Shown: in pieces, positions 153-35,311 of the stretch
How the letters are laid out: each line of letters opens with the position of its first letter
Position numbering within the stretch: position 1 is the stretch's first letter
DNA from: Elusimicrobiota bacterium
GTDB lineage: Bacteria; Elusimicrobiota; Elusimicrobia; 2-01-FULL-59-12
NCBI GenBank assembly: GCA_041660185.1
Contig: JBAZWU010000001.1
Span: 182,765-246,764, forward strand
Direction: 5' to 3'
Length of the DNA: 64,000 bases
Position numbers and translations under genes: made by a program
The notes under the pieces: generated by a model
What the model was told of the DNA's origin: nothing
What the model saw: the letters and a program-made list of their open reading frames with translations, nothing else
The model's database searches: none

Positions 153-1325
153 TTACTTCGCGACATTCCAACGAGATTCGTAATAGTCTTTTAAGGGAAC
201 GTTTTCGTATAGGTCATTGTAAAGCTCTTCCTGTTGGTGGACCATCCGGTCAATGTTGAATTCGTCGCCCACGCGGCGGGCCGCGGCTTGCCCTAATCGC
301 CGTCCTTCTTCGGGGTGGTCTTGCAGCCACACGATTTTTTCTGCGGCCGAGCTTACGTCTCCCGGCAGGATCAAAAAGCCGGTCTGCCCATCCTGCAGAA
401 TATCTTTGACCCCGTTGACGCCATAGGCCACGCAGGGGAGTTGTGCGGCGGAAGCTTCCACCAAAGCTCGCGGAAGCCCTTCCCACAAGGACGTCAGTAA
501 GAAGCCATTCGCGGCCGCCAGGATTTCGGGGATATCCTGACGCCATCCGACGAAATGGATAGAAGCCCCAATCCCCTGTTCTTGGCACCAGGTTTCCACG
601 GATGGACGCAGTTCCCCATCCCCGACGAGAATAAAATGCGTGTTCGCCTTCTTTTTCAGGACTTCCGAAGCCACCCGGACCAAATCCATTGGATTTTTCT
701 GCAATTTAAAATTGCCGATGGAAACCACCACCCAGGCCTTGCTGGAAATGCCGAGTTCTTGACGAACCCTGCTTTTGGCCGCGCGTTGGAAAACGATGCC
801 GCTGCGAATCAAACTGTTCGGCGTCCGACGCCCGATCCCCAGCTCCGCGGCTTCGGTGCGATTGTCCTCTGAAACAAAGATCAAGTGGATGCTCAGGAGT
901 GCGCAAAATTTCTCCAGCGCGATAAAGATCTTTCGGAGTCCCGGCGCCTGTTTGGGGGTAAAGCCAAATCCATGGAACGTGTGGATGATCACGGGCACTC
1001 CCGCGAGATAGGCGGCGATCCGTCCCAGAATTCCGGCTTTGGACGAGTGGGTGTGGACGATGTGTGGTTTCTGTTGCCGCAGCAATCGATAGAGAGAGAG
1101 GAGCGCCAGAAGATCTTGAATCGGACGGATCAGCCGGACCAGGGATGAGACAAAAAAGGTAGGCCAGTTCCCCCTTTTCGCTTCCTCATCCAGAAAGCCG
1201 CCGGCGCCGCAGATCAGTGAGACGTCAAATCGGTTGGAATCCAGATGCGAGAGGGTGTAAAGGGTATTCTGCTGGGCGCCGCCCAGTTCCAGTTGCGTGA
1301 TGATATGACAAACGCGAAGTTTCAT
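153..1325 (-). CDS. Glycosyltransferase family 4 (GT-B fold)
   Basis: N-terminal CHIITQLELGGAQ glycine loop. C-terminal SLWEGLPRALVEA E-x7-E motif typical of GT4/GT1-family retaining transferases. Confidence 0.8.
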   Translation of the reverse strand: MKLRVCHIITQLELGGAQQNTLYTLSHLDSNRFDVSLICGAGGFLDEEAKRGNWPTFFVSSLVRLIRPIQDLLALLSLYRLLRQQKPHIVHTHSSKAGILGRIAAYLAGVPVIIHTFHGFGFTPKQAPGLRKIFIALEKFCALLSIHLIFVSEDNRTEAAELGIGRRTPNSLIRSGIVFQRAAKSRVRQELGISSKAWVVVSIGNFKLQKNPMDLVRVASEVLKKKANTHFILVGDGELRPSVETWCQEQGIGASIHFVGWRQDIPEILAAANGFLLTSLWEGLPRALVEASAAQLPCVAYGVNGVKDILQDGQTGFLILPGDVSSAAEKIVWLQDHPEEGRRLGQAAARRVGDEFNIDRMVHQQEELYNDLYENVPLKDYYESRWNVAK

Positions 1326-1358
1326 TTTGTTTTGTAGGGGGCGCCGGCTGGCGCCCCG

Positions 1359-2657
1359 TTACCTTCCCAGAATCCTCTCGGCGGTTGTTTTCCCATCTAA
1401 AATCGCTTCTTCCATATACGAGTACTTCCAGGCGCCATAGCGGCCGATGGAGTAAACGTTTTCATGGTCCAGGTAACGAAGGATGGTTTCCGCAGACCGG
1501 GTGCAGTTTTTGTCGAAGATGACGTAAGCCACCGGGATATGCAGGACTTTTCGGGCAATAATTCGATCGCGACGCTGCAGAAGGCCGCCGTCCCGCAGGC
1601 CGGCCAACAATTGCCGAAGGATAGTTTTGCCATCGGGCGGATGACCCGGTTGATAGGCCACTTCGATATACATCGAACTTGTTCCAGAGGGGGTTGTATG
1701 GGACGAGAAATTCGCCGGGAAGCCCACCCGGTAGAAACGGTATTTGGTTTCCGGAAAGTATATCCATTGCTTGTCGGTCAGATCCGGCCGGTCGATCCCC
1801 AGATTCAGGTTATAGAGCGATGTCCAACGGAGCAAGCGCCTGGCGTGTTCAATTTCCGGCGGCAGAGGTCTGGCGATTTTTAAAAAATAGGCCAGGGGCA
1901 GCGTCGTAATCAGGTGTTCATAGGCGATCACCTCACCCGTGTGAAGCGTCGCTTCTTTTTTGGCGAGATCAATGCCCGTCACTTCCGTATTCAAACGGAG
2001 TGCCTTTAAATCGTTTGCCAAAGCGGTCGGGAGCGCCTGAATTCCCCCTCGTTTTGGATAGTAGAACGTGGCGTTGTATCCGAACGTTTGGGTCTGTTCC
2101 GCGAGGCCTCCCAGGATAATTTCCTCAACGGAAGGGCGCGGAACAAAAGGAGCGACCCATTCCGCCGTCAACACGTCCGCCGGCACCGTCCAGAGTTTCC
2201 GATTGTATGGGAAAAAGAAGTGCTTGGCAAACCCTTTGCCGAAGGTCCGGAGGACCCAGCTTTTAAACGATTCGGGAGAGCGGACCGGAGCCGGACGGTG
2301 CTGCAATTGAGCTTCGATGAAACCGGCGACGCAGTCTTTCATCACCTGTTTTGGGAGCGCATACGTGTTGGCCTGGAACGGGTACGGAATATTGGTTCGG
2401 TGCGAGTAGATCCAGGACCGGCGCTTGTGAAGGGCGAGGTTATCGCCTAAGAGCTTGGGAATCAGTTGAAGCGTGTAGGGATTTCGCAGGTGGAGAAAAT
2501 GACCGGTGTAATCAAAAACAAAACCGTCCTGGTGAATGGATTGCGCTAAACCTCCCGGCTGACTGGAACGTTCCACCAGGAGATAGTCGCGCTTCAAGTG
2601 ATAGGCGCTGGAGAGCCCGGAGAGCCCTCCGCCTAAAATCAGCGTCCGGATTTTCAT
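1359..2657 (-). CDS. FAD-dependent oxidoreductase, UDP-galactopyranose-mutase-like (eukaryote-type Glf family)
   Basis: FAD dinucleotide fold ILGGGLSGLSSA..ERSSQPGGL. Motifs IPYPFQAN, FFFPYNRKLWTVP, NATFYYPKRGGI, WIYFPE..FYRVG and GRYGAWKY, which I recognise from long-form UDP-Galp mutases. 4-nt overlap with the WecA-like gene. Confidence 0.55.
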   Translation of the reverse strand: MKIRTLILGGGLSGLSSAYHLKRDYLLVERSSQPGGLAQSIHQDGFVFDYTGHFLHLRNPYTLQLIPKLLGDNLALHKRRSWIYSHRTNIPYPFQANTYALPKQVMKDCVAGFIEAQLQHRPAPVRSPESFKSWVLRTFGKGFAKHFFFPYNRKLWTVPADVLTAEWVAPFVPRPSVEEIILGGLAEQTQTFGYNATFYYPKRGGIQALPTALANDLKALRLNTEVTGIDLAKKEATLHTGEVIAYEHLITTLPLAYFLKIARPLPPEIEHARRLLRWTSLYNLNLGIDRPDLTDKQWIYFPETKYRFYRVGFPANFSSHTTPSGTSSMYIEVAYQPGHPPDGKTILRQLLAGLRDGGLLQRRDRIIARKVLHIPVAYVIFDKNCTRSAETILRYLDHENVYSIGRYGAWKYSYMEEAILDGKTTAERILGR

Positions 2658-3706
2658 GGTTCGATGGGTATTCGTGCCAGCCAGGTGCCAAAGGCCAGCG
2701 CCAGCACGCCGATCACGGAGTAGATCAACAGGGCGTATTGAAAAGGAACCACCGTCACCCGATAGGCGCTGAATGCCAAGAGCAGGCTGATGGCATAAGA
2801 CAGAATCAGGATCTCCTCCCGATAAAATCCGTATTTTTCAAGGCGCAGCGCATAATGGTCCCGGCTTCCCATAAAGGGAGACATCCCGCGCTTAAATCGC
2901 AAACAGGTCACCAGAAACGTGTCGTACAGGGGGAGCCCGAGAATCAACAAGGGCGCAAAAACACCCAGATTATTCACGCGCGTATAAGCGGTTCCCAGCG
3001 AAAGCGCCGCCATCATGAACCCGATCAAAAGGCTTCCGGTGTCCCCCAAAAATATCTTGAGACGTTTGGAGAGGTTATAAGGAATGAATCCAAGCAAACC
3101 CCCCGCCAGGGCGACAGAAGCCACATTGACATAAATCTCTTCGGAGGGTAGTGAAATAAACAGAAAACCCAGGCTGGCGATGACCCCGATGCCGCTGGCG
3201 AGGCCGTCCATGATGTCGATAATGTTGATGGCATTGATCAATCCGACAATCCAGATGAGTGTGATGAGATCGGCGAACCAATGCGGCGAGATGAATTTAA
3301 TGCGGATGTCGAAAGCCATCAGACAAAGCGCGGCAACGAACTGGACAATAAATTTTGATTTATACCCGAGACCTTTCGGAACGACGTCGTCGATGAGTCC
3401 CAACAGGCAGATGATGCTGCCGCCCAGGAAAATCCCCCGCAAAGAGTGTAGTGTGCCGGTAGGAAAGTTGGTCATCCATCGAATTGTGAGCAGCGTGGCC
3501 GCGAGTGCGGCCGCCACGGCCAGCCCCCCCAGGTAAGGGACCGGGTGCCGGTGCGTTTTGACGTCCGTCAGAGGGCGATCCAGTATTTTGTAGGCCATCG
3601 CAACCTTCCGCGCGAGAGGCGTCAGAAGCGCGGACAGAACCAGGGCGAGAGAAAAACAAATCAGGTAAAGCATTCTTGTTTCACTGCTCAGGGTGACGAA
3701 GCTCAT
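2654..3706 (-). CDS. Polyprenyl-phosphate HexNAc-1-phosphate transferase (WecA/MraY family, initiating transferase)
   Basis: About 10 hydrophobic segments. Motifs IDDVVP and NAINIIDIMDGLASG (NxxNxxDGxDGL) are diagnostic of the MraY/WecA superfamily. Confidence 0.85.
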   Translation of the reverse strand: MSFVTLSSETRMLYLICFSLALVLSALLTPLARKVAMAYKILDRPLTDVKTHRHPVPYLGGLAVAAALAATLLTIRWMTNFPTGTLHSLRGIFLGGSIICLLGLIDDVVPKGLGYKSKFIVQFVAALCLMAFDIRIKFISPHWFADLITLIWIVGLINAINIIDIMDGLASGIGVIASLGFLFISLPSEEIYVNVASVALAGGLLGFIPYNLSKRLKIFLGDTGSLLIGFMMAALSLGTAYTRVNNLGVFAPLLILGLPLYDTFLVTCLRFKRGMSPFMGSRDHYALRLEKYGFYREEILILSYAISLLLAFSAYRVTVVPFQYALLIYSVIGVLALAFGTWLARIPIEP

Positions 3707-5571
3707 AGCTCGAAAACCTCACAGGCGGGATCCTGATAAAGACGCTTCCCGACCCGGGAAAGAAAATGATCCCAGTTTCTCTGTCCGGCGGCTGAGAACG
3801 GGAAAAGATGGTAAGCTTCCAGGCGTTTCATTTCCTTATGGTTGACCACGAGATGCGAATACCCCTGCGCACGAATCCGGTCCCGAAGCGCTTCAGCATC
3901 GGCCGCGGCATTGGCCCATGAGGCCAACGGGTTTTCATTAAAAACAGGCGTGATCCCCGTTGGCTTTTCATAATAATACCCTCTTTGGTCGCCAACCACC
4001 AGTAGGCGCGTGGCGCCAGGCAGTTGATTCACAAATGAAGCGGCGGCAAAGTAATCCAGTTTTCTCCGGAGATAGGCCGAGCGGTCTTCCAGGCCCAGAG
4101 CCACGCCAAAAGGTGAGAAGACGGTCGTTAGAGTGAAAAAAACGCAGAAACCGGAGACCAGCATCAACGTCAGCAGCGTCCGGCAGGTCCATCGAAAAGG
4201 CGCCGGCAAGCGTTCCACGCCTTCGGCCCAGGCATGCCCGGCCAGAAGAGCCAGCAGGGGAGCTACGGGCATGAGAAAACGAAGCACCGGCCGCGACATT
4301 CCCCACGGGATGAAAAACAGCAGAACGAACAGGCCCGAATCGGATAGGATTTTTCCCCGCTGACGACAGAGCGTCAGCGCCGGGAGCAGGGCCACCAGCG
4401 GCATCCAGCCGAAATCCCCCAGGACATCCATGCCGCCGCCGTAACGAAGGCCATTCACGGTGATCTCCCAGACCAGCCTGGCCAGATGGGTCAGCGAATA
4501 CGGTTGGTATTCGGTCAATCCACGGAAATAACCGGCGGCGGCGCTCTGTACCCAGGGATTAAGTTTAGTCGAGCCCCAGGCATAGAAAAAAGGGAAGACC
4601 GGGTTTCCCACGTAAATGATATTTTTAATCAACCAGGGGCTGACGGTCGCACAAGCGGTTAAGCCATAAAGCGTCAGTCGACTCAGAAGAACTTTGGAAG
4701 GACTTCCCCAGCTTTCTTTGAAGATAAAAATCACAACGATCGCGGCCGGAATAGCGCCGGTATATTTGCATCCCATCGCCAGGCCCGCCATCACTCCAGA
4801 CAGAATCAGCAGCGGGGGCTGTTTTTTCTGAGCCCAAAGTTGCAGCGCGTAGAAACTAAGAAAGCTGAAGAGCATGAGCCCCACATCCACATACCCGCCG
4901 GAACTCAGCAGCAGAAACGCAGGCATCACGCTCAGCAGCGCTCCGGCCCAGAGAGCTGAGCGCGGATTAAGAAACCGGCGTCCAAAAAGGATGAGAGCGG
5001 CCAGGGCGAGTGCGCCCAGAGAAAGCGCCAGAACATTCACCAGCGCATCGCCTCCAAGCAGAAGTCCGGCGGTCCACAGCATTTCCAGTGTTTGAGGAAA
5101 GGCGGAGTAAATTAAATTCGGTAGTCCAACCCAATGACCCGCTTTGACATACTCGGCCGGCAAAGCCAGGTGATAAACGAGCGAGTCGTAGTAGGTCGTG
5201 GGGGCCAGCGCCACCACGAGCGCCAGAACGCTTCCTAACAGGATAAGACCCCGGGCGGCGATCGAGGTTTTCTCAATCGAGGGATGAGAGGGTTTCAGGC
5301 GGCGGCAGGAGATCCAGAACGGATGACTCATCAGAAGGCCGGGGATTAACAAAAGGCAAACGCCGGGGAATGTCCAAGCCTGGCACAAACCGGCCAGGAT
5401 CATCAAATGACTGAAAAGACCCAAGCCGAGCGACAAGGACATCACGACTTGTTCCCCCGGGCCCAGAACCGAAAAAGCCAGAAACCGGCCCAGGAAGGCG
5501 CCATAGCCGCCCGCACTCCAGAGAACCAGCGCGAGCCACCCGAGGGTTATCGCGGATCGAATAACGAACAT
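3703..5571 (-). CDS. Polytopic GT-C-fold glycosyltransferase-like protein (ArnT/PMT_2-like) with C-terminal soluble domain, paralogue 1
   Basis: More than 10 hydrophobic helices. Acidic first-loop motif [10 protein letters not shown]. About 130-aa non-hydrophobic C-terminal domain. Overlaps the upstream GT2. Confidence 0.55.
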
Positions 5572-6287
5572 GGCCAGAGATGAAACCGATGAAGATAATA
5601 ACGCGCGATGCTTCGCAACGATTCCAGACCGTAACGGACGCTGCGGCTGAAGTTGATGGAGGAAGCTTCATCAAAATAGCGCGCGGGAACCGGGATGTCC
5701 CCCATCCGAAAGCCAAACGCGGCGGCTTGAACCAGAAACTCACAGTCGAAAACGAAATCGTTGGAGTTCCGTTCCCAGGGAATGGTTTCGAGCACCTTTC
5801 GGGAGTAGGCCCGCAGGCCGCTGTGCCATTCACCCAGATTCTGGCCCATCAAAAAGTTTTCCATCATGGTCAAGAACCGGTTGGCGATGTATTTGTAAAC
5901 GGGCATTCCCCCATTTAAGGCTTCGTTTCGCGTTCGAATACGGTTCCCGAGCACCACGTCGCAAACCCCATCCTTCAGGAGTCCGGTCAGGTAAGGGACC
6001 AAACGGGAGTCGTATTGATAATCCGGATGAATCATGACGACGATATCCGCTCCGGCCTGGAGCGCGCTCCGGTAACATGTTTTTTGATTGCCCCCGTATC
6101 CTAAATTCTTTTCATGCACGATGACGGTGAGCCCCAGCTGGCGGGCCAGGGGAACGGTCTGATCGCGGGAGCAGTCATCGACAAGGATAATGCTGTCGAC
6201 CGATCCGTCCGGGATATCCCCGACGGTTCGAGCCAGTGTTTTTTCCGCGTTATAGGCAGGCATCACCACAATGACTTTTGGTTTCAT
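5547..6287 (-). CDS. Glycosyltransferase family 2, polyprenyl-phosphate sugar synthase-like (DPM1/ArnC/GtrB-like)
   Basis: [24 protein letters not shown]2 N-terminal signature and HPDYQYD (DxD-like). Start chosen at MKPKVIVV (ATGA overlap with the upstream stop); the ORF-track start at 6344 is probably an extension. Confidence 0.8.
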
Positions 6288-7819
6288 AAAAGTTCCACCC
6301 AGGGTAGATTGACGACTTTCCGAAGCCGGTAGGTGCGCATCCACACGTGAGCCATGGGTTCCTGTAAAAGACTCTCGTGAGCGAAAACAGGCGCCCGTTG
6401 TTTGAGTTTCGTCACTTCCGTTTTTAGAAGGTCAGACGGTATGCGCGTGACGTTCCAAGCCGGTCGTCCGGTAAAGTACAGCAGATAAATCCAGGGAACT
6501 CCTCCTTCCATCAAGTAAAAAGCGTCGGACGGTGTTCCTCGCGCCAGCGCCAGGGTCTGCTGATACGCGGCGTTGTTTTTCGCGGCATGCATCGGCCGTA
6601 TTAAGGTTACAAAGTTTACCGCCAGGGTTGATCCGACGAGGCCTGCGAGACACCACCGCCGGGTCGTTTCCGAAAGGCCGCGCGCAAGACCCACCGCCAG
6701 CAGAAGCCCCAGGGGAATCACATCCGCCATCCGGTAAAGAAGCGTCCGGGGTTCCCACGTCCACAGAAAGAGCGCGTAAACGCCGATCCAAAGCAGGCTG
6801 AATCGCCAGATCCTGTCGGCTCGATGACGGAAAGAAAGAAAAATCCCAAGGCCGAACAATCCCAGGGAAACAACCGTCAGTGTCCATGTCAGAAAAGTGA
6901 CGTGCGTCGTTCCGTAAGGCGAAAAGCTTCCCCAGAGATAAGGAAGGTTCCCCCAGGCCCATTGAAGCGGAGCGTTCCATCCCGCCCAATGCCAGGCCAG
7001 ATGGCGGTCCGGGGTCAGACCGGCGCTTCCTCTCAGCCACGTGAGAATCCAGGGGAAGCCGCGATGGGACGGGATCAAAACAAAGAAAAGAACGCTCAGA
7101 TAAGGGATCGCAACGGTGGATCCTAGAGTGGCTAGATAAGTCAGATAAGTTTTAAAGCCGTCATCCCCGAGTGTCTTTGTCGGGGACGCCACACTGCGGG
7201 CGTCCGCCAGTCGTGTGGCGGATCCATCATGCTGTCTGGATTCCCCGCCAGAGACCGCGGGGAAGGACGTCATCGTAACGCGTTCTTTTCGAATCCAATA
7301 GAGGGCGGGGATGATCCATAAGAGATGAATCACATGGCCAAGAACCGCCAATCCATGAAGGAGGCCGACCCAAAGATATTTCCGGGTCGACTGGCTTGCG
7401 AGCAGAACGTAAACCGCCCACGCCAACGCCGCGAACCCCAGGGGATAGACTTGCGCTTCCAGGCTCCAGACCCAGAAAACAGCAGACACGCTCATTGCCC
7501 AGGTGAGTCCCAGCGCTGTCCAGGGTTGACGCGTTTCATGCAGAAAAATCCGGTAAACGCCTGCCAGTCCGATCGCTGAAAGCAGCGGGTTCAGAAGTTG
7601 AAGAGCGGATAAAGCGCGAATGGAGGAAGAAAAGAAAAAAAGAGCCCGCCAAAACCAATACCCCAGGAAGCCATAGAGGAGATGATTGGAATGAAAAAAG
7701 AAAACCGGATCGCCCAGTTCCAGCGCCGCGGCGCAGGCCACCCCATCAAAGTTCCAAAGACAGGACGGGAAGCGGAAGCAAAGCCCGAGGGGGAGTGCGA
7801 ACGCAAGAAAGCAGATCAA
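6284..7819 (-). CDS. Polytopic membrane protein, GT-C-like (paralogue 2), carrying an in-frame repeat-element insertion
   Basis: Hydrophobic multi-pass protein with a C-terminal soluble region like the other GT-C paralogues. Residues ..[41 protein letters not shown].. are encoded by repeat copy B. Confidence 0.45.
7160..7268. repeat. Nested-palindrome REP/MITE-like element, copy B (expanded, 3-4 hairpins), inside a CDS
   Basis: gtcatccccgag..gtcggggac / tccgccagtcgtgtggcgga / ggatccatcatg / gattccccgccagagaccgcggggaa. Shares the GGATCCATCATG core and terminal units with the other copies. Confidence 0.75.
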
Positions 7820-9132: not shown

Positions 9133-9179
9133 GAAATTATAACGGGTAGAGCCATCCGGTTACAACCATCCGCCAGACC

Positions 9180-10001: not shown

Positions 10002-10696
10002 CGTTTGTCCGGCGCGCGCGGGGGGCGTGTCGCAAACAACAGGATGTCTTCAGCGGCATCCGCATAAAGGATCCAGGCGATCAGGCAGGCCAGTCCCCGC
10101 CGGATCCAGCGCAATATCCCGAAATGTTCTTCGACGATATGGGTGCGATACATGGCCACGTCGTACCCGAGGACCCTGAACAGACAATACAGATCCTGAG
10201 GCGGGAGGGGATGGATGTGCGTCATGTCCCCCTTCCAGACACAGTTCACGTGATTGGCGTTGGGAGTCGAGATCGCGATGGTTCCTCCCGGATTGAGATG
10301 GCTTTCGCAGAAAGCGAGATGCGCGTAAAAATCATCCAGGGGCATATGCGCAATGAGATTGAACATGACGATCACATCGTAGGATTGATTCACCTCCGAC
10401 AAATCGTGATACTCGTGCGGGAACCGGGCGTCTAAATCGAGCGTGTGGTAAACGCCTTTGTGGCCCGCGGATCGCATCGCGCGCTGCACGAAATTATCGC
10501 CGGAGCCGATGTCGAGAACAGACTGGGAGTCTCCGATCACCTGTTTGAGTTTCGATCGGGATCCATCGAGCGTTGTTGGACTCATGAATCCGATGTTGAT
10601 CGGCATTTTCTTTTTAAAATACTCGGGATAACACCCCTTAATGGCCCAATAGAGATCCCAATATTTCTTCGTGATCTGGCGTTGTGTTTCGGGCAT
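9998..10696 (-). CDS. Class I SAM-dependent methyltransferase
   Basis: Motif I VLDIGSGDN. YDVIVMFNLIAHMP motif. Confidence 0.7.
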   Translation of the reverse strand: MPETQRQITKKYWDLYWAIKGCYPEYFKKKMPINIGFMSPTTLDGSRSKLKQVIGDSQSVLDIGSGDNFVQRAMRSAGHKGVYHTLDLDARFPHEYHDLSEVNQSYDVIVMFNLIAHMPLDDFYAHLAFCESHLNPGGTIAISTPNANHVNCVWKGDMTHIHPLPPQDLYCLFRVLGYDVAMYRTHIVEEHFGILRWIRRGLACLIAWILYADAAEDILLFATRPPRAPDKR

Positions 10697-14890: not shown

Positions 14891-14892
14891 GG

Positions 14893-25454: not shown

Positions 25455-25461
25455 TTTGGGA

Positions 25462-27539: not shown

Positions 27540-27552
27540 AACGATACATTTC

Positions 27553-27636
27553 GTCATTCCCCGCAGTCTCTGGCGGGGAATCCATCATTGTCGTTCGCAA
27601 TTCTTGGATCCCCGGCCAGCGACCGCCGGGGATGAC
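27553..27636. repeat. Nested-palindrome REP/MITE-like element, copy C
   Basis: GTCATTCCCCGC-agtctctg-GCGGGGAATCCATCATTG ... GGATCCCCGGC-cagcgacc-GCCGGGGATGAC. The second stem carries compensatory changes. Confidence 0.8.
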
Positions 27637-28819
27637 GAATTGCGACACAGTCTCCAGGTCCAGGGGACTGTTTTGTGAGGGTTCGTTCGACGATCTGGTG
27701 AATCTTCTCCTGGAATTTCTCGAGGGTGAATTCGCGCGATCGTTCCAGCAGCGTGGTTTGAACGGCGATCTGCAGGGCCTTGTCCTGCAGCAGGCGGATG
27801 ATCTTTTGCAGAGCATCATCGGGATCTTTCCAGAGGATCCGTGAATCATTCCCGAGAACTTCAGCCTGTCCCCCTCCCTCATGCGCAAAAGGGATCATTC
27901 CCCCGCTGATCATTTCGGCGATGGCGATGCCAAAGCCTTCAAAATCCCGCATATGAATCCCGTATTGGAACCGGTTCATTAAGGAGGTAATGCCCGCTCG
28001 ATTGAGCCGGCCCTCCCAGAAAATGCCTTGAGCTGGATTGGCCATCCGTTTCACGCGTTCGGCGTAAGGGCTTTTCCCGTCCCCGATCAGATGCAGATCG
28101 ACGGAGAACCCTTTCTCCCGGAGTTGGCGAATCAGCAGGACCGCCTGATCCACCTTCTTTTCCGGCAAGAGATCCCCCACGCAGAGAAAACCCGTATGCC
28201 GCTGCTCCCAGGGAGCCGGATTGTTTCCGGGCAAAACCACCGGCGGGTAAACCACCTCAGCGTCCGTTCCGGGGTAGGTTCGCTGGAATACGTCTTTGCC
28301 CCATATCGAATTGACCAGCGTCGTATTCTGGAGGATGTGATCCGGCTGGAAGTGCGAAATCTGATCGCACAAACGATAGTACAGTTTCCGCCAACCCGAT
28401 TCCTTGTATTGGGACAGGTAAAGCTGCGCGCCGAGCGTGCTGCGGGAAGGACCGTGAATGTATTGAATCCCGGGGACGCCGAAATCAAATTCGTTGTACG
28501 TGGAGATCAGAAGATCGAACCGCGGAGCCAACTGCTTGACGAATCGCTCATAGAGCGCGAGGATCAGCCTGAAAGGCCTTTGGTGGGCCTTCAGGAGCGT
28601 TAAAGAGGGGCAGTAATAGGTTGTGACCCTGGAGGGGTCGATCCGTGTGCCGTAATAGCTGTTGAGGGCGTTCCAGTCGATCGTCTGTCCCCAGGTCAGA
28701 TAAGAGAGATCAAACGATTGGTGGAGCGCATCGAGGAGCCAGGCCGCGACAAAATCCCCTCCGCCTTTGTTTTGCAGCAGATTGTGGTGAACCAGCGCGA
28801 TTTTCGGGCGCGGGCTCAA
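27554..28819 (-). CDS. Glycosyltransferase family 4 (last ~28 codons and stop encoded by repeat copy C)
   Basis: HMRDFEGFGIAIAEMISGGMIPF E-x7-E motif. The C-terminal tail IRHPRRSLAGDPRIANDNDGFPARDCGE maps onto the repeat. Confidence 0.75.
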   Translation of the reverse strand: MSPRPKIALVHHNLLQNKGGGDFVAAWLLDALHQSFDLSYLTWGQTIDWNALNSYYGTRIDPSRVTTYYCPSLTLLKAHQRPFRLILALYERFVKQLAPRFDLLISTYNEFDFGVPGIQYIHGPSRSTLGAQLYLSQYKESGWRKLYYRLCDQISHFQPDHILQNTTLVNSIWGKDVFQRTYPGTDAEVVYPPVVLPGNNPAPWEQRHTGFLCVGDLLPEKKVDQAVLLIRQLREKGFSVDLHLIGDGKSPYAERVKRMANPAQGIFWEGRLNRAGITSLMNRFQYGIHMRDFEGFGIAIAEMISGGMIPFAHEGGGQAEVLGNDSRILWKDPDDALQKIIRLLQDKALQIAVQTTLLERSREFTLEKFQEKIHQIVERTLTKQSPGPGDCVAIRHPRRSLAGDPRIANDNDGFPARDCGE

Positions 28820-29535
28820 GGGATTCCAGCCTGGATGAGGATCTGATACCCGAAAAGATTTGGAAACACGTTATAGGCTTTCCACAAGAGCGGCCAGCCG
28901 ATGACCGGGATCCGCCGGATGATAGGTTGCAGGAATGGGATTCCCATATCGGGATCTATCGAGAAGGCCTGAACGATATACCCCGCTTTCATGACCAATT
29001 CCCGGGCGGTTCGAGAGTTAAAAAATCGTAAATGGGTTTCATCCAGGATTCCGGTGGGCTGATAATGAAAGCGTCCCAGTAACAAATTCCACCGGATGGA
29101 CCAATGGGCGATGTTGGGGAGAGCGATGATGAGTTTCCCCTGCGGTTCTAATTTGGTTTTGAGCCGTCGTAAGACGTCCAGCGGGTCATTCAAGTGTTCC
29201 AGAATCGACAGGCAGACAATGACGTCAAAGCTCCCCGGGAGGCTTTCGAGGACCGCCGGGTCGTCCAGGTCCCCCACGATGACCTTTTCGTAGGCTTGTG
29301 CCCGTGCCGCGGAGGCGGCGTCTTGCTCAACGCCAACGACGGAGCATTTTTTCGTTTGAACCAGATACCGCCCCATGTAGCCGGTTGAACAACCCAATTC
29401 CAGAACGCGCGAGGATTCAGGGATCCAGGCCAGCGCCTGTTTATCCGCGGCCCATGGGTATCCTTCATTCAGGGCTAATCCTGCCGGGCGATCATATTTC
29501 AAAGGCTGAGAAGCCCGTTCCACGGTTTGTCTCAT
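28816..29535 (-). CDS. Class I SAM-dependent methyltransferase
   Basis: Motif I VLELGCSTGYM. FDVIVCLSILEHL motif. Start at MRQTVERAS gives an ATGA overlap with the flippase stop; the 109-aa ORF-track extension is rejected. Confidence 0.8.
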   Translation of the reverse strand: MRQTVERASQPLKYDRPAGLALNEGYPWAADKQALAWIPESSRVLELGCSTGYMGRYLVQTKKCSVVGVEQDAASAARAQAYEKVIVGDLDDPAVLESLPGSFDVIVCLSILEHLNDPLDVLRRLKTKLEPQGKLIIALPNIAHWSIRWNLLLGRFHYQPTGILDETHLRFFNSRTARELVMKAGYIVQAFSIDPDMGIPFLQPIIRRIPVIGWPLLWKAYNVFPNLFGYQILIQAGIP

Positions 29536-31028
29536 GGGAGCACGACCGCCGTTGGAATTTGAAGAAGATGCCGCGTCCAGCGTTTGGCCAGGGTGCGGTC
29601 TTCTTCGTCGAAAAGCTTCCAATACAGGGTGATTATAAAAATCGGGATGATGATCAAGAAGGCGACTAAACGGTGCGGGACCCAGAGAAGCGGGGCAAAA
29701 CAGAGCAGGGTGGTGCCCAGCACAGCGGTCAATCGAAGAGGTTCCCAGATGCGGTGAATTCGTTTTCGAATGACGAGGAAGTACAGCCCGGATTGTACGA
29801 CTTGGGAGAGAATGAAAACCCAGGCCGCGGCGTCCGCTCCAAAACGGGGCATCAAGAGGCAATTGAGCGAGAGCGTCATGACAAACGTTCCGGCGTTGAT
29901 CTGGAAGTAAGCTTTTTCCTCATGGGAGGTGATGAGGAGATTGCCGAAGATCCTGTTCCAGGCCACGAAGGGAAGGCAGCAGGCGAGAAGAGCCAGCAGC
30001 CGGCCGGTCGGTTCATAAGCCATTCCCCAGATCCGCTGCACGATGGTTGATGAGAAGAACAGCAGTGTCGCGGTGGCCGGAAAGGCCAGGACGGCCGTCC
30101 ACAAAATCGCTTTCCGGCAGATCCAGGGAAGGTCGACGTCGTGATGGACGCCGGCCCGGGACATAATGGGATAAAGTACCGTCATAAAGGGGTGCCAGAC
30201 GGTTTCAACCACCGTCAACATTAAGATCGACGCCAGACTGTAATAGCCGACAATCAGCGGCGCGCAGAAAAGCGATAAAAGGACCCGGTCCAGTTTTTCG
30301 CCGGCGGTGTTAAACAAGGACACGCCGCCCATGGGCGCGCCCTCTTTCAATTCACGGACCATGGTGGTTCGATCCAGCGTAAAGTCCGGCCATTCAAAGC
30401 GATGCTTCACGACCCACGCGTGGGCGGCGGCGATGAGAACGCTATTCAAGACCATCGCCCCGAACAGCCAGTTCAGGCCTTTCCCGTTGCTTAAAACGCA
30501 GAACCCCAGCAACGCCCACCCGATGGCCGAAGCGAGTTGGGTGGCCCAGAGATAGCTTGTTCTCTGATGCGCGATATAGATCGCTTCGCCGACCTGGGTG
30601 ATGGTTGTCACGGCCAGGTGAGCGCCGGCCAGCAAAAATACTTTCCACATGAACTGGGGATATCCCAGAACCGGCAGGACAATCATCAGCCCGGTCCAGA
30701 GGACAAGGCTCGAGAGCAAACGGATCCAGAAAAACGAGCCAAATAATTTCGGCGCCTCAGCAGCGCGCCGGGTCGCCTCCCGGATGACCGCCAGGCTGAT
30801 GCCGAAATTCGAGACGGGTAAAACCAGCGCCACAAAACTCATCGTCGTGTTGTATAAACCAAAATCCGACGGCCCCAGATGCTTGGCAAAATAGATCATC
30901 CAGCCGAAATTGATGAGCCGCGTTAAAAACTGGCCGCCGCCCAGCAGAATCGCGCTGGCGCCGATATTGTTAGCCGGGGACGTGAATGACGGCGGATTAA
31001 TCGACTTTGAGGATGTCATAGGCTCCAA
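29532..31028 (-). CDS. Oligosaccharide/polysaccharide flippase (Wzx, MOP superfamily)
   Basis: About 12-14 hydrophobic helices. N-terminal region ILLGGGQFLTRLINFGWMIYFAKHLGPSDFGLY is typical of Wzx/RfbX. Confidence 0.75.
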   Translation of the reverse strand: MEPMTSSKSINPPSFTSPANNIGASAILLGGGQFLTRLINFGWMIYFAKHLGPSDFGLYNTTMSFVALVLPVSNFGISLAVIREATRRAAEAPKLFGSFFWIRLLSSLVLWTGLMIVLPVLGYPQFMWKVFLLAGAHLAVTTITQVGEAIYIAHQRTSYLWATQLASAIGWALLGFCVLSNGKGLNWLFGAMVLNSVLIAAAHAWVVKHRFEWPDFTLDRTTMVRELKEGAPMGGVSLFNTAGEKLDRVLLSLFCAPLIVGYYSLASILMLTVVETVWHPFMTVLYPIMSRAGVHHDVDLPWICRKAILWTAVLAFPATATLLFFSSTIVQRIWGMAYEPTGRLLALLACCLPFVAWNRIFGNLLITSHEEKAYFQINAGTFVMTLSLNCLLMPRFGADAAAWVFILSQVVQSGLYFLVIRKRIHRIWEPLRLTAVLGTTLLCFAPLLWVPHRLVAFLIIIPIFIITLYWKLFDEEDRTLAKRWTRHLLQIPTAVVLP

Positions 31029-32721
31029 ACCGTTGATAAGGCCGCATCGGGCCGTGAATGAATTTCTTCAGAGTGCCCCACGCCTTCACGTCCTGGGTCT
31101 GCAACACGACATAGCGGATGGGGTTCCGGGAAGACAAACCGTCGGGGACCAGCGTGACAGGTACCCCCCCGTTTTCCCTGAGCGCCACGCTGATCTCCCG
31201 GTCAAGGGGCAAGGTGCGCGCATGGCTCCGCGTGTTGTATCCGATATCTTTGTAGCTGGCGATCCCCTCCGTCCCTGTCAGATGATGGTTCAGGAAATCA
31301 ATCGTTTCCGTATAGCCAGGATCGTCCTTGGGGTTGAGCAGCGTGTACGGATAACGCTTTAAAACAGATAATTCAACGAGATTCGCCGCGAGAGCGGCCA
31401 CCACCAGGCCGAGGGTTATTCGTGAGCGGATGGATCCCGTCAAAACCCGCAGACCCAATACCAGGATGATTACAAAATCGGCTATCGCTTTCAAATAACG
31501 GACGAACCGGATATCCGTTAGACAGCCCCGGAAAGAATGAGTCGTCAGCTGTTGTTGCAGGGAAGGGATGACCACGATGTCCGGCGCCAGCCAGAAAGTC
31601 AGCGCCAGGGCCGCCAGGAAAAGCAGGGCCATGCGCTTGATTCCGGAAGCGGGCACGGAAAAGTCCAGGGATTGCACAATGGTCAAGAGGAGAAACGGCA
31701 TGAAGGGAACCAGATATTTATCCACCGTCGGGATGCAGAGAGTATAGAGGATAAACCCGGTCGCGCCGATAAAAAGCGGCAAATCATCCGCGAGTGAACG
31801 GTCGCGGAGGGGTGCCGTGAACGTCCGGCGGATCAGGCTATAGAGATACAAGACAAAAACGGGGATGGACATCCAGGCCGCGTACCAGCGGACCGCACTG
31901 ATCCGTTCATACAGCGAGGCGGCTTCCTGAAACTTGGTGCTCTGGGCGTGAAGCCCCAGCATAAAATCCCAGGGGACCCCCATCGCCTTTGTATAAAGCC
32001 ACCAGGTCATCATGAACAGGATCACTCCGGCGATAACCAAAAAACACCACTGACGGAAAATTCGCCATTCGCGATGGAACAGAAAGGCCAGGCCGATACC
32101 GGCAAACCAGACGAGAGTTGTTTCTTTGATCCAGAGGCAGATCGATAGGTAGACGATCAGGACGAGGCTGCGCTGAAAGCGCCAGTTATCCAGGAGCCAG
32201 GTCATCAAGCCGAGAAGACCCACGCCGGCCAGCGTCATAATGCTCGTATCGATATCAATCAGCAGGCTGCCGCGAAGCCAGTAAGGGTTAAGGGCCGCCA
32301 AAGCGGATAACGTGAGGACTTGGGGCGCCCAGGGCGTCGAAGGCGCTTTCTTCTTTGCCCGTTGTCTCAGCCAGAAAACACACAAGAGAAGGCTGATCAT
32401 AAAACAGGCCTGACCCAGAACACGAGCCCCCCAGGCGCTTCGGGTCCCGGTCAGAAGGGAGATGAGATAGAGATAAAACGGCGGATGCCAGAGGCCGATA
32501 TCAGCGCCCCATTGATTGTTCCAGGAGCCTTGTCCGGTTAAAAACAGTTCATTCGAGGAACCCGTGGGTATTATCGGGAAACCGGTGTCGATGATCGCGG
32601 TCCGGAAGTACAGAAAGTCAATTTCATCCGCGCGCGGAAGGTTGTGCAGGTAGGGAAAAGACAGGAGGACGTAAAGGAATAGAAAGAATCCGACAGCCGC
32701 GATAATTCGTGAGCGCGTCAT
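30997..32721 (-). CDS. Polytopic GT-C-fold glycosyltransferase-like protein, paralogue 7
   Basis: Multi-pass. First-loop LPRADEIDFLYF acidic motif. C-terminal soluble domain. ATGA overlap with the upstream GT2-MT. Confidence 0.55.
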   Translation of the reverse strand: MTRSRIIAAVGFFLFLYVLLSFPYLHNLPRADEIDFLYFRTAIIDTGFPIIPTGSSNELFLTGQGSWNNQWGADIGLWHPPFYLYLISLLTGTRSAWGARVLGQACFMISLLLCVFWLRQRAKKKAPSTPWAPQVLTLSALAALNPYWLRGSLLIDIDTSIMTLAGVGLLGLMTWLLDNWRFQRSLVLIVYLSICLWIKETTLVWFAGIGLAFLFHREWRIFRQWCFLVIAGVILFMMTWWLYTKAMGVPWDFMLGLHAQSTKFQEAASLYERISAVRWYAAWMSIPVFVLYLYSLIRRTFTAPLRDRSLADDLPLFIGATGFILYTLCIPTVDKYLVPFMPFLLLTIVQSLDFSVPASGIKRMALLFLAALALTFWLAPDIVVIPSLQQQLTTHSFRGCLTDIRFVRYLKAIADFVIILVLGLRVLTGSIRSRITLGLVVAALAANLVELSVLKRYPYTLLNPKDDPGYTETIDFLNHHLTGTEGIASYKDIGYNTRSHARTLPLDREISVALRENGGVPVTLVPDGLSSRNPIRYVVLQTQDVKAWGTLKKFIHGPMRPYQRFGAYDILKVD

Positions 32722-34331
32722 TCACTTTTTCTGGCTAGAATCGTTATGAAATCAAACGCGTTCAGCCGGATTCGATGATGTCCCAGATGCAGGGCCTTGA
32801 TCAGCCGGTCAAACGCGTCGGCCATCCATTTCTGGTAATTCCTTAAAAAACGTGACCAGTGTACGAGTGTGAAGACGTGAGGAAACGTCTGAATCCGGAG
32901 GGTCTGCAGACCATAACGGCCGAGCAAGGATTGGATGGTCCGGCGGCCGATGTAATGGAAGTGGACTTTGTTGATTCCCCACCAGCGCTGTTTCAGGCCT
33001 CGCGCCATCCAGCTGTCCACATCCGGATCGATCATCAGCAGGTATCCGCCCGGGCGCAATTTTCCCGAGATGTATCGCATGAGCTGATCCGGATCCAGGA
33101 CGTGCTCAAAAACATCCGCCATGACGACAATGTCAAAACCGGATTCCGGGACAGCGGCCCGATCGTAAGTTCCCTGGCGCACGTCCAGCCCCAATTGCTC
33201 GACGGCATACCGGCAGCGTTCCCGGCTGGGCTCGATGCCGACGGCGCGGTAGCCCCGGTCGTGCGCGGCCTTCAGAAAGAACCCGGCGCCGCTCCCGATT
33301 TCAAGTAGCTTGGCCGGCGGTGGGCTCTCTCGCGCCAGTTGCTCGACGATCGGCTGAAAGGCCTGGACCCGGCTGTCTTTTTCGCTCAGGTAGACAGGAT
33401 CCGAAAATGTTTCGTAGCCCGCTTCAATGTCGCCGGGCATTTCCCGGGGATCCACGCGGATAAACCCACACGCCGCGCACCGGAAGAGGCTCAGCGCCAG
33501 GCCGAACTCATCGCTGTGAATGTTGGTAATTCGAGCGGGGGCTGTGTTCGGACTGATCCATAAGCGCCACGCGTCGGAACCGCAGACCATGCAGCTGCTT
33601 CTTTGTCGGGTGGTCTTCCAGAACGTTGCCGGCCAGAAGGCCATCCGAAGCAGAGCCAAGCCCACTTTCAGTTTGCTGTAATTCGATAACCCGCCTGTTT
33701 CGACGTTGGATATAGGGACTTCCTGTATCCGAAATCCGAGTTTGCCTGTCTGGACAATCAACTGCTGGTCAAAGAAATGACGGTTATCCAGATGGTCGAC
33801 ACAGAGCTTTTGGGCCGCCGACAACCGGATGGCTCGAAACCCGCCAAAGTATGTCGAAAATCGCAGGCCGAGGAGTTGATTCAGGAAGGAGGTAATGCCG
33901 GCATCCATCCAGCGCTTCCATTGGGGGCGATGGGTCGAATCGTCCCGGGATTCCTGCCGGGCCCGAAGAGGCCGTGAGCCGAAGCAGATATCCAGCGACG
34001 GATCGTTCCGGAGAGGCTCCAGCAAGTCGGGGATTTCCTCCGGCTTCATTTCCCCGTCGCCGTGAAGAAAAACGAGCACATCGTTGCCGGCATCCTGATA
34101 GTGTTCCTGGAAATACCGCAGAAGGGTCTTCTGCGTGGCGCCATATCCTTGATTCGACGGGTGTCGAATCACTGTGAGGCCTGGGATTGTTTTCAGGACG
34201 GCCGGAGTGGCATCGGTGCTGCCATCGTCAACGACCAGTATTTCGGAGACGGCGTTTCGGTCAATACGGCGCAGAACGTCTTCGATGTGCGGGGCGACAT
34301 TAAAAGCCGGTATCCCAACTAACAGCTTCAT
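32718..34331 (-). CDS. Bifunctional fusion: N-terminal GT2 (DPM1-like) + CxxC..CxxC zinc ribbon + C-terminal class I SAM methyltransferase
   Basis: GT2 part GIPAFNVAPHIE..VVDDGSTDAT..LHGDGEM. Linker CMVCGS...CAACGF. MT motif I LLEIGSGAGFF. Confidence 0.8.
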   Translation of the reverse strand: MKLLVGIPAFNVAPHIEDVLRRIDRNAVSEILVVDDGSTDATPAVLKTIPGLTVIRHPSNQGYGATQKTLLRYFQEHYQDAGNDVLVFLHGDGEMKPEEIPDLLEPLRNDPSLDICFGSRPLRARQESRDDSTHRPQWKRWMDAGITSFLNQLLGLRFSTYFGGFRAIRLSAAQKLCVDHLDNRHFFDQQLIVQTGKLGFRIQEVPISNVETGGLSNYSKLKVGLALLRMAFWPATFWKTTRQRSSCMVCGSDAWRLWISPNTAPARITNIHSDEFGLALSLFRCAACGFIRVDPREMPGDIEAGYETFSDPVYLSEKDSRVQAFQPIVEQLARESPPPAKLLEIGSGAGFFLKAAHDRGYRAVGIEPSRERCRYAVEQLGLDVRQGTYDRAAVPESGFDIVVMADVFEHVLDPDQLMRYISGKLRPGGYLLMIDPDVDSWMARGLKQRWWGINKVHFHYIGRRTIQSLLGRYGLQTLRIQTFPHVFTLVHWSRFLRNYQKWMADAFDRLIKALHLGHHRIRLNAFDFITILARKSE

Positions 34332-35311
34332 CGAGCGGCAGCGAGGGGTTGTTGAGTGAGTTCAGGATGATCCCGGTAAAACGTCAGCGTATCTTCAACC
34401 ACGATGCGCAGACTGCGGGTGGGTTGCCATTTCACAGCCGTTGTCAATTTGGTGCTGTCCGGGATTTTGTCAAAGGCTTCTTCGTAGAGCGATCCGTAGA
34501 TCTGTTTGGGGTCCACCTTCTGGATGGCTGCCGGGGTCCCTGTGATTTGTTTGACCAGGTTGGCCAGATCATGAATCGTGGTAAGGTTGGCGGGGTTCCC
34601 AACGTTAAATACTTCATTCACGCGATCGGAGTTCATAATCGCGAAAATGCCGCTGACGATATCCAGGACATGCGTGAAACACCGGATCTGATTTCCGGAT
34701 CCGAAAACCGTTAAGGGCTCGTTGTGCAACGCCTGCAAGAGGAATCGCGGCAGGACAAATCCGCCTTTCGGGCTCTGGCGCGGCCCGGCGATGTTAAAGG
34801 GGCGTACGATGTTGAATTGAATATCCCCGTGAGACCGTTGGCGATTGATCAGCATGATCTCGCAGAGGAGTTTGCCGATGGCGTACTCGAGACGGGCGCT
34901 CGTGATAATGGGAACGATTTTCGGCACATCTTCGGAAAAAAACCCGTCCCGGCCATAGATCTCCGACGTGGAAACAAATAGCAGCCTCGCCTTGTGAGTG
35001 GCGGCGAGTTCCATCATGTGCTTTCCGTCGTTCACCATCAGCGGCCCGATCCGGCCCGCAAAGGGCAATACACCGGCCGGCCCGACCACGCTGGCGCAAT
35101 GATAAATTTCGTCGATTTTCTTGTCCGACGTAAAATCCGAGCACGGGATCGTTAAAACGTTCAGGTTTTTATATTTGCTGAAGAAATCCTTCGCGATAAC
35201 GTTATTTTGAAAATTGTCGACCAGGATAACGTCGTCGCCCCGGTCCAGAAGTGCTTCGGCCAGATGGGAGCCCAGAAATCCGAACGCCCCCGTAACTAAT
35301 ACGCGTTTCAT
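34328..35311 (-). CDS. NAD-dependent nucleotide-sugar epimerase/dehydratase (extended SDR)
   Basis: VLVTGAFGFLGSHL Rossmann motif. YAIGK (YxxxK) catalytic motif. Confidence 0.85.
   Translation of the reverse strand: MKRVLVTGAFGFLGSHLAEALLDRGDDVILVDNFQNNVIAKDFFSKYKNLNVLTIPCSDFTSDKKIDEIYHCASVVGPAGVLPFAGRIGPLMVNDGKHMMELAATHKARLLFVSTSEIYGRDGFFSEDVPKIVPIITSARLEYAIGKLLCEIMLINRQRSHGDIQFNIVRPFNIAGPRQSPKGGFVLPRFLLQALHNEPLTVFGSGNQIRCFTHVLDIVSGIFAIMNSDRVNEVFNVGNPANLTTIHDLANLVKQITGTPAAIQKVDPKQIYGSLYEEAFDKIPDSTKLTTAVKWQPTRSLRIVVEDTLTFYRDHPELTQQPLAAAR

Follow-up and report, generated by a model that had tools for sequence, protein, structure and literature searches.

An uncultured Elusimicrobiota bacterium (GCA_041660185.1, contig JBAZWU010000001.1) carries, in the 64-kb stretch of DNA analysed here (the window), a real, densely packed 35-kb locus for the assembly of sugar chains. 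It is tiled from 153 to 35311 by 29 genes (g01 to g29), seven of which encode polytopic glycosyltransferases of the GT-C class (G04, G06, G11, G14, G17, G19 and G27) that, from their sequences, probably add sugars outside the cytoplasm. Four further genes encode GT2 domains that look like synthases of the lipid-linked sugars such enzymes use. Comparison of gene neighbourhoods indicates that the locus is composite, with a conserved seven-gene core and a variable block of about 26 kb lying upstream of it. Since a type IV pilus operon lies immediately upstream of the locus, a pilus protein is a plausible target of the pathway.

Seven GT-C proteins and their candidate donor synthases

An earlier note on this DNA had proposed from sequence motifs that the seven polytopic proteins are GT-C enzymes, and had named transporters as the alternative. 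Profile or structure evidence was obtained for all seven as GT-C, and none for a transporter. A hydropathy scan gave 6–14 hydrophobic segments in each protein. G04, G11, G17 and G19 score over the Pfam cut-off for PMT_2, and the last three also match PMT; G06, G14 and G27 miss the Pfam GT-C models. The acidic first-loop motifs quoted in the note are all there, in the early part of each protein and past its first hydrophobic segment or segments: HPDE in G17 and G19, GDEQNF in G11, ADEIDF in G27, YYDS in G04, WNFDG in G06 and SDDQQ in G14. The Asp residue of the motif is invariant or nearly so in the family alignments.

The sequence profile of G06 gave only sub-threshold, TMEM260-like matches. 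Its AlphaFold2 model, built from an alignment of 47 sequences, is confident (predicted local distance difference test (pLDDT) 93.1, predicted template modelling score 0.90) and comprises about 13 membrane helices and a small C-terminal alpha/beta domain. The top 30 or so Foldseek matches of this model in the Protein Data Bank (PDB) are GT-C proteins only (STT3/PglB, ArnT with a TM-score of 0.55, DPY19, ALG9/12, Pmt4, AftB and Emb), and identity to characterised GT-C enzymes in the structural alignments is 10–15%. A transporter fold was considered for G06 and rejected, as MFS/POT proteins appeared only at Foldseek probabilities of at most 0.14 and a TM-score of about 0.12. The G06 family is nearly confined to metagenome-assembled genomes (MAGs) of Elusimicrobiota.

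G27 has no direct Pfam match, and a word-indexed homology search returned G27 itself only; relatives were recovered by an exhaustive search, in the form of 113 cluster representatives. PMT_2 is matched by 31 of the 46 aligned members of this family, and over some 370 residues the profile of the family aligns with ArnT (5ezm, 3.7e-4). Lying next to the Wzx gene and lacking a Pfam match, G27 was also considered as a Wzy polymerase; this was rejected on the PMT_2 matches of its relatives, the ArnT match of its profile and its DE and HPP motifs. Searches of the PDB by phmmer with the single sequences of G06 and G27 gave nothing useful. G14 is linked to G19 by BLASTP (3.6e-6), the profile of its small family matches PIG-M (2.3e-4), and its family aligns with that of G27 in hhalign at a probability of 94.6%.

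The seven proteins had been described as paralogues with similar C-terminal soluble domains. Only G17 and G19 align over their full length (26% identity over 524 aa), and a likeness of the C-terminal domains is likewise shown for this pair only. The G06 family gave no hhalign match to the G14 family and reached a probability of only 24% with the G27 family. Judged by these alignments, the seven are anciently diverged members of one superfamily and not the products of local duplication, and G06, G14 and G27 are new, very divergent GT-C families. An exact-sequence look-up with G19 matched no contig, and a scan of the GTDB representative genomes with it found no relative. The density of GT-C genes, which the note had set far above that of known O-antigen or capsule loci, is a relative matter. 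Related MAG loci carry 2–4 GT-C genes per ~20 kb, which suggests that several GT-Cs per locus are a trait of the phylum, with this window at its high end.

Polyprenyl-phosphate-sugar synthases are the best NCBIfam matches for four of the five GT2 domains, those of g05, g16, g20 and g28. The top matches are dolichyl-phosphate (Dol-P)-hexose transferase, PpgS, AglJ and ArnC for g05; AglJ (8.3e-29), Dol-P-hexose transferase, PgfS and ArnC for the GT2 part of g16; ArnC (6.1e-21), then PgfS, AglJ and Dol-P-hexose transferase for g20; and PpgS (2.7e-16) for the GT2 part of g28. The fifth domain, g23, matches exopolysaccharide and rhamnosyl-type GT2s best, with no polyprenyl-phosphate synthase among its top matches. 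No transmembrane helix was found in g05, g16, g20 or g28, and for want of such an anchor the four resemble soluble PpgS/DPM1-type enzymes and not GtrB. Each of these candidate synthases neighbours a GT-C gene (g28/G27, g20/G19, G17/g16 and G06/g05/G04), and the stop codons of g28 and g20 overlap the starts of G27 and G19, respectively, by 4 nt. Permutation of the gene order gave p ~0.02–0.03 for this adjacency.

Two of the candidate synthases are fusions with a methyltransferase, in opposite domain orders (g16 and g28). Because of these fusions some of the methylation may fall on the lipid-linked donor, and the domain architecture hints at methylated polyprenyl-phosphate monosaccharides. We know of no description of such a donor-tailoring route to O-methyl sugars via lipid-linked monosaccharides. 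Flippase candidates are Wzx (g26) and g30, a PF03706 protein just outside the region first described, which also scores over the cut-off for TIGR00374 (4.3e-23); a flippase role of PF03706 proteins with polyprenyl-phosphate sugars is putative.

Locus architecture and the pilus operon

Start candidates were recomputed for all 29 genes before the junctions were counted. Genes overlap by 4 nt at 14 of the 28 junctions, by 1 nt at two, by 8 nt at two and over a longer stretch at four, where the starts are uncertain; at the remaining six they are separated by 2, 7, 13, 19, 33 and 47 nt. All 13 tight junctions quoted in the note proved to be 4-nt start/stop overlaps of the ATGA type or equivalent. 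The all-minus-strand array was also borne out, as no plus-strand open reading frame (ORF) within 153..35311 has a Pfam match (ORFs of at least 100 aa were scanned). The bias towards the minus strand is shared by nearly the whole window and is no peculiarity of the locus; the co-directional array runs on beyond 35311, and the functional unit reaches past this position. Pfam returned exactly the domain inventory drawn up from motifs, namely one WecA/MraY-type initiator, one Wzx, four GT4, five GT2 domains and one GT9, and it reproduced the six class-I methyltransferase domains (GT2 fusions in two cases), the AsnB-type amidotransferase and the nucleotide-sugar enzymes. One junction said to be filled by a repeat could not be found, since Tandem Repeats Finder and a repeat finder (tandem and dispersed) located no repeat at any junction. 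The nearest repeat-like feature is an 8-bp perfect hairpin, GGGGCGCC-AGCC-GGCGCCCC, which takes up the greater part of the 33 nt separating g02 from g01 (1326..1358). Two GC-rich hairpins lie in 1..152, after g01, the last gene. These hairpins may be terminator or repetitive extragenic palindrome-like elements marking the end of the locus; a terminator scan gave weak intragenic matches only, and none in the intergenic gaps.

In order to compare gene neighbourhoods, homologous loci, mostly from Elusimicrobiota MAGs, were collected and given L-numbers. Seven genes in the order sugar dehydrogenase, G06, GT2, G04, WecA-type initiator, UDP-galactopyranose mutase (UGM) and GT4 (g07 to g01) recur as a block in many of these MAGs with 40–85% identity. 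The candidate synthase g05 is the most conserved of them (74–84%), homologues of G04 in other core blocks are 45–68% identical, and those of g01 occupy the equivalent position in L002, L008 and L009 with 58–59% identity. The flavin "amine oxidase" of the core, g02, is by its phmmer matches a homologue of UGM (Aspergillus fumigatus UGM 3ute, 1.9e-50; Trypanosoma cruzi UGM 4dsg, 8.9e-49), and a furanose is therefore predicted in the conserved part of the glycan. In L009 and L085 the core follows almost directly after pilQ, a Wzy_C gene, a Wzy_C-TPR gene and a flippase-like gene, and g08 to g29 are absent; L086 has the same pilus, Wzy_C and flippase flank, followed by other sugar-activation genes, for a HAD hydrolase, an aldolase, a double nucleotidyltransferase and a kinase. 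Because these loci differ between the conserved flanks, g29 to g08 (~26 kb) represent a lineage-variable block, and the earlier view of the locus as one unit has to give way to that of a conserved core plus a variable block. A sigma70-like site in the 47-nt gap lies exactly at the border between the two. As a separate observation, the core genes (AsnB-G06-GT2-G04-WecA-UGM-GT4) also occur on L017 and L049, and on L011, L012 and L031. These contigs are labelled "Clostridia bacterium" or "bacterium" MAGs, and horizontal transfer or mis-binning is possible.

Upstream of g29 lie g30, an AbiEii toxin gene with its likely antitoxin partner, two Wzy_C genes (g33 and g34) and the type IV pilus operon. 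The profile of the Wzy_C transmembrane domain matches the WaaL structure 7tpg (8.5e-15), and the start of g34 overlaps the stop of pilQ by 4 nt. The order pilQ-WzyC-WzyC_TPR is kept in L009/L085 and in L086, in all of which an equivalent of g30 is also kept beside the Wzy_C-TPR gene. The distant locus L088, with a PilQ of 30% identity, even has its 682-aa Wzy_C-TPR gene within the pilus operon, where pilD and pilM flank it (8151..15969 of that locus). At E ≤ 0.01 Pfam returned only Wzy_C and TPR families for g33 and g34, and no PglL_A domain. TPRs are confined to the Wzy_C proteins and were found on none of the seven GT-C proteins, and a Wzz chain-length regulator had no match in any scanned ORF of the window. 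The acceptor of the glycan had been called not evident; the coupling of Wzy_C-TPR genes to pilQ and the conservation of this linkage in other genomes now provide clues to it. Features of the locus and its surroundings are given in Table 1.

Table 1 Genes and other features of the glycan locus and its surroundings, in window coordinates
Feature	Coordinates	Strand	Assignment	Basis and remarks (E-values)
g01	153..1325	-	GT4, last core gene	Glycos_transf_1 5.4e-33
g02	1359..2657	-	UGM homologue, eukaryote type	Amino_oxidase 6.8e-24
g03	2654..3706	-	WecA/MraY-type polyprenyl-phosphate N-acetylhexosamine-1-phosphate transferase (initiator)	PF00953 3.2e-31; TIGR02380 wecA 6.6e-29, under cut-off; ~11–13 hydrophobic segments
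G04	3703..5571	-	GT-C, PMT_2/ArnT-like	PMT_2 2.6e-11, over cut-off; YYDSLVYH at residue 127
g05	5547..6287	-	Small soluble GT2, polyprenyl-phosphate-sugar synthase type	PF00535
G06	6284..7819	-	GT-C fold	AlphaFold2 and Foldseek; WNFDG loop-1 motif
g07	7816..9132	-	Nucleotide-sugar 6-dehydrogenase, first core gene	UDPG_MGDP_dh N, central and C domains; TIGR03026 1.9e-133; top equivalog matches are UDP-ManNAc dehydrogenases
Sigma70-like site	9165..9136	-	TTGTAA-18-TATAAT	10/12, consensus match only
g08	9180..10001	-	Class-I S-adenosylmethionine (SAM) methyltransferase	Methyltransf_11 and Methyltransf_23 (g08/g09)
g09	9998..10696	-	Class-I SAM methyltransferase	Methyltransf_11 and Methyltransf_23 (g08/g09)
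g10	10696..11799	-	GT4	Glyco_trans_1_4 8.9e-15; homologue in L002, 47% identity
G11	11784..12989	-	GT-C	PMT_2 1.8e-8, PMT 1.1e-7, both over cut-off; GDEQNF at residue 32
g12	12986..14890	-	AsnB-type glutamine amidotransferase	Asn_synthase 1.5e-100; closest NCBIfam model XrtA/PEP-CTERM amidotransferase 3.6e-188, under cut-off
g13	14893..15954	-	GT9 (heptosyltransferase family)	PF01075 7.2e-15; heptosyltransferase II 1.1e-18, under cut-off
G14	15951..17693	-	Divergent GT-C	SDDQQ loop motif, SHLAKPH motif
g15	17680..18417	-	Class-I SAM methyltransferase	Methyltransf_11 1.3e-28
g16	18437..19882	-	Methyltransferase-GT2 fusion (in this order)	Methyltransf_23 and Glycos_transf_2
G17	19882..21516	-	GT-C	PMT_2 3.9e-8, PMT 8e-8; HPDE at residue 44
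g18	21509..22546	-	Gfo/Idh/MocA oxidoreductase, UDP-GlcNAc 3-dehydrogenase-like	GFO_IDH_MocA 3.1e-25; NF040723 3e-36, under cut-off
G19	22539..24122	-	GT-C	PMT_2 1.4e-11, PMT 2.2e-9; HPDE at residue 36
g20	24119..24814	-	Small soluble GT2, polyprenyl-phosphate-sugar synthase type	PF00535 3.2e-25
g21	24828..25454	-	Hexapeptide-repeat sugar acetyltransferase	Hexapep 1.2e-21; NeuD/PglB/VioB family 1.1e-23, under cut-off
g22	25462..26670	-	GT4	Pfam
g23	26667..27557	-	Ordinary Leloir-type GT2	Pfam
g24	27554..28819	-	GT4	Pfam
g25	28816..29535	-	Class-I SAM methyltransferase	Methyltransf_23 2.3e-21; start at 29535 gives 4-nt overlap
g26	29532..31019	-	Wzx/MOP-family flippase	Polysacc_synt 1.4e-31, Polysacc_synt_3 4e-23
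G27	30997..32721	-	Divergent GT-C	ADEIDF at residue 31, HPP at 79
g28	32718..34331	-	GT2-methyltransferase fusion (in this order)	Glycos_transf_2 and Methyltransf_23
g29	34328..35311	-	Nucleotide-sugar epimerase/dehydratase of the short-chain dehydrogenase/reductase (SDR) family, UDP-GlcA decarboxylase-like	Epimerase 6.3e-38; top NCBIfam matches UDP-4-keto-pentose/UDP-xylose synthase and ArnA C-terminal domain, both under cut-offs
g30	35428..36411	-	Flippase-like membrane protein, LPG_synthase_TM	PF03706 3.6e-50
AbiEii and partner	36467..38033	-	Nucleotidyltransferase toxin; overlapping 219-aa upstream partner at the AbiEi antitoxin position	AbiEii 2e-32; no Pfam match for the partner
g33	38198..40000	-	WaaL-family Wzy_C membrane protein with C-terminal TPR	Wzy_C 5.9e-17; TPR at residues 420–567
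g34	39984..41528	-	Second Wzy_C protein, C-terminal TPR or TPR-like; paralogue of g33	Wzy_C 7.3e-9
Type IV pilus operon	41525..49590	-	pilQ, pilO, pilN, pilM, pilD, pilin, pilC, PilT/PilB-type ATPase	Secretin, PilO, PilN, PilM_2, Peptidase_A24, N_methyl, T2SSF, T2SSE
Pilin gene	46559..47032	-	Pilin	Ser/Thr-rich C-terminal part ending in ...KSSPWTSY, which is not evidence of glycosylation
361-aa ORF	56142..57227	-		No Pfam match
ORF	57237..58514	+		Weak PHP_C match
MsbA-like exporter, lpxB	61685..63999	-	ABC exporter and 3' part of lpxB, at the right window edge	

The AbiEii slot between the Wzy_C-TPR and flippase-like genes looks like an insertion hot spot. In L009 it holds a 1257-aa ORF (3855..7628 of that locus) with no Pfam match, and in L086 it is empty. 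A plus-strand ORF at 36410..37555 was rejected as spurious, having no Pfam match and overlapping the AbiEii gene. The part of the pilus operon with the pilin and pilD-pilN genes (44000..48000) has a G+C content of about 0.50, against 0.54–0.58 in the rest of the window. Further out, the 361-aa ORF adjoins one of the few plus-strand ORFs. The MsbA-like transporter and lpxB identify the organism as a lipid A-making diderm that produces lipopolysaccharide (LPS).

Proposed pathway and alternative readings

From gene content, fold and family assignments and synteny we infer the donors, acceptors, topology and order of steps of the following pathway, which we favour with moderate confidence. It would combine a Wzx-type undecaprenyl-pyrophosphate (Und-PP) pathway with several three-component periplasmic modules and end in transfer by Wzy_C-TPR proteins to pilin, lipid A-core or both. 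The WecA-type initiator g03 would prime undecaprenyl phosphate, and cytoplasmic Leloir enzymes (four GT4, one ordinary GT2 and one GT9) would extend the chain from donors supplied by the locus's own dehydrogenase, SDR, 3-dehydrogenase, acetyltransferase, amidotransferase and UGM; Wzx (g26) would then flip the Und-PP product. The soluble GT2 domains of g05, g16, g20 and g28 would make polyprenyl-phosphate monosaccharides, to be flipped perhaps by g30 and then to serve as donors from which the seven GT-Cs would add residues at the periplasmic face. The Wzy_C-TPR proteins g33 and g34 would most likely move the finished glycan to its acceptor. Because Wzy_C-TPR genes are embedded in the pilus operon, and this arrangement is conserved, pilin is a plausible acceptor; lipid A-core could equally well receive the glycan, and transfer to one does not exclude the other. 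The outline of cytoplasmic Und-PP assembly, Wzx flipping and periplasmic GT-C steps was already given in the earlier note. It is strengthened by the donor-synthase GT2s beside the GT-Cs and by g30, and has lost the claims of a single unit and of paralogy that went with it.

Several points weigh against this pathway. The NCBIfam matches of the GT2, SDR and initiator proteins are all under the curated equivalog cut-offs, the candidate synthases are without the GtrB-type membrane anchor, no GtrA, SMR or ArnE/F-type flippase was found among the scanned ORFs, and the statistic for synthase/GT-C adjacency is modest. Confidence in the structural model of G14 is low: all top eight Foldseek matches of its AlphaFold2 model are GT-C proteins at TM-scores of about 0.3, which lends weak support because the model, built from a 6-sequence alignment, is poor (pLDDT 52). 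On the side of the acceptor, a toxin-antitoxin pair and a 164-nt gap stand between the Wzy_C genes and g30, the synteny with the pilus operon could be due to shared ancestry rather than function, and LPS is an equally available acceptor because LpxB and an MsbA-like transporter are encoded in the window.

The last point leads to an ordinary LPS O-antigen or core locus, in which the two Wzy_C proteins would be a Wzy polymerase and a WaaL ligase, the GT9 a core enzyme and the GT-Cs Gtr- or ArnT/Rgt-like modifiers of O-antigen, core or lipid A, with the pilus genes as incidental neighbours. A WecA-type initiator, Wzx, GT9 and Wzy_C all belong to the classic LPS repertoire. The profile of the Wzy_C proteins matches WaaL, lipid A genes are at hand in the window, and the pairing of a UDP-glucose dehydrogenase with an SDR like the ArnA C-terminal domain recalls the Arn and Rgt pathways. 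We nevertheless hold this to be rather unlikely: translation of the Wzy_C genes is coupled to that of pilQ, these genes accompany the pilus operon in three lineages and lie inside it in a fourth, and no Wzz was detected among the scanned ORFs. Neither WaaL nor Wzy is known to carry TPR extensions. The LPS and pilin readings are not exclusive, as Pseudomonas aeruginosa TfpO attaches an O-antigen unit to pilin. A bolder form of the pilin reading, which is tentative and in our view unlikely, is a "pilin serotype locus" in which Elusimicrobiota pilus operons would end in dedicated Wzy_C-TPR oligosaccharyltransferases followed by a hypervariable glycan island; in this genome the product would be an unusually branched, methylated pilin glycan assembled in up to seven GT-C steps, from donors methylated before flipping by the GT2-methyltransferase fusions.

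Some or all of the GT-Cs might instead be protein O-glycosyltransferases of the kind of actinobacterial PMT or P. aeruginosa TfpW, placing single sugars or short chains from polyprenyl-phosphate sugars directly onto pilins or other envelope proteins and not decorating a lipid-linked glycan. Four of the seven match PMT/PMT_2 protein-mannosyltransferase models, G06 has its weak TMEM260-like match, the locus adjoins a pilus operon, and pilin glycosylation by a GT-C has a precedent in TfpW (bioRxiv 10.1101/2020.04.19.049825). PMT_2, however, also spans ArnT-like lipid and glycan enzymes, and ArnT is among the top matches of solved structure; the GT-Cs have neither TPR nor MIR-type protein-binding domains, and the full Und-PP pathway that is present (initiator, Leloir enzymes and Wzx) yields a product that needs an acceptor step, all of which makes direct protein glycosylation improbable. 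The coordinates could also be shared by independent glycan modules that are merely juxtaposed and co-oriented, for example an envelope glycolipid pathway and an O-antigen-like island. In favour of this, nearly all of the 64 kb is minus-strand, the core occurs without g08 to g29 in L009/L085, and the sigma70-like promoter stands exactly at the border of core and variable block. Yet 4-nt overlaps connect the genes through most of the array, and juxtaposition is further weakened because each part lacks what the other has, the sole initiator (g03) being in the core and the sole Wzx (g26) in the variable block; we consider it very improbable.

Relation to known systems

The concept of three-component periplasmic glycosylation was established with Gtr systems, and Kelly et al. 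2024 (PMC11127046) took it further. The Gtr systems of Salmonella and Shigella and the GT136 system of Citrobacter youngae (PMC11127046) resemble the present locus in having a synthase, a flippase and a GT-C within a glycan locus, the GT-C of such systems acting after export. The Elusimicrobiota locus differs in having seven GT-Cs and four candidate synthases instead of one each, in synthases that are devoid of the GtrB transmembrane anchor and in two cases fused to a methyltransferase, and in a flippase-like PF03706 protein and Wzx as candidates in place of GtrA, SMR or a dedicated MATE flippase. With the mycobacterial arabinogalactan and lipoarabinomannan pathway (WecA, Emb/Aft; PpgS with Rv3779) it shares a WecA-type primer, clustered GT-Cs and a furanose mutase, and several periplasmic GT-C steps using polyprenyl-phosphate monosaccharides as proposed here; g05 and g28, moreover, have PpgS among their top matches. 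In contrast to that pathway, DprE1/DprE2 and a UbiA-type phosphoribosyl synthase were not found in the locus, its GT-Cs are PMT_2/ArnT-like and not Emb-like, the host is a diderm, and Wzx and Wzy_C proteins are present. ArnT and other PMT_2 enzymes (GT83/GT39-like GT-C_A) are linked to the locus GT-Cs by profile matches, by a match in fold and by acidic residues in what is predicted to be the first periplasmic loop. Identity of the locus GT-Cs to characterised members is very low (10–15% in structural alignments).

Type IV pilin glycosylation offers a second set of parallels. TfpO/PilO of P. aeruginosa 1244 and PglL of Neisseria are Wzy_C-family proteins encoded in or beside pilus genes with an Und-PP-glycan pathway nearby. 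In the present locus it is pilQ, and not pilA, that the Wzy_C genes follow; they are a pair of paralogues, and Pfam gave no PglL_A domain for them. TfpW, described as a TPR-bearing GT-C pilin glycosyltransferase (bioRxiv 10.1101/2020.04.19.049825), has the TPR in common with the locus, where it is carried by WaaL-fold proteins and not, as in TfpW, by a GT-C_A enzyme. Wzx/Wzy O-antigen clusters share the initiator, Leloir glycosyltransferases, Wzx, the nucleotide-sugar and methyl/acetyl tailoring genes, co-directional transcription, and conserved flanks around a variable centre. In contrast to them, no Wzz was found for the locus, its Wzy_C genes lie outside, in the pilus operon, and its GT-C content is far over the usual 0–1.

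Both the components and the logic of the pathway are thus known; what is unusual is the multiplicity, with seven GT-Cs, four candidate synthases and two synthase-methyltransferase fusions, and what is new is the linkage of such a locus to a pilus operon through Wzy_C-TPR proteins. The earlier note had allowed that an essentially identical locus might already be characterised, but no close or characterised relative was present in the collections searched. Literature searches (glycosyltransferase, pili, mannosyltransferase) found no published work on surface glycans of Elusimicrobiota.

Periplasmic GT-C glycosylation is usually one side-branch step on an otherwise cytoplasmic pathway. The present locus suggests that a diderm phylum, one not related to mycobacteria, may assemble much of a bacterial surface glycan outside the cytoplasm. 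The divergent GT-C families and the GT2-methyltransferase fusions may be of use in glycoengineering if their donors and acceptors are defined. For a phylum with almost no cultured members, the conserved link to the pilus provides a concrete, testable hypothesis for the acceptor of the glycan.

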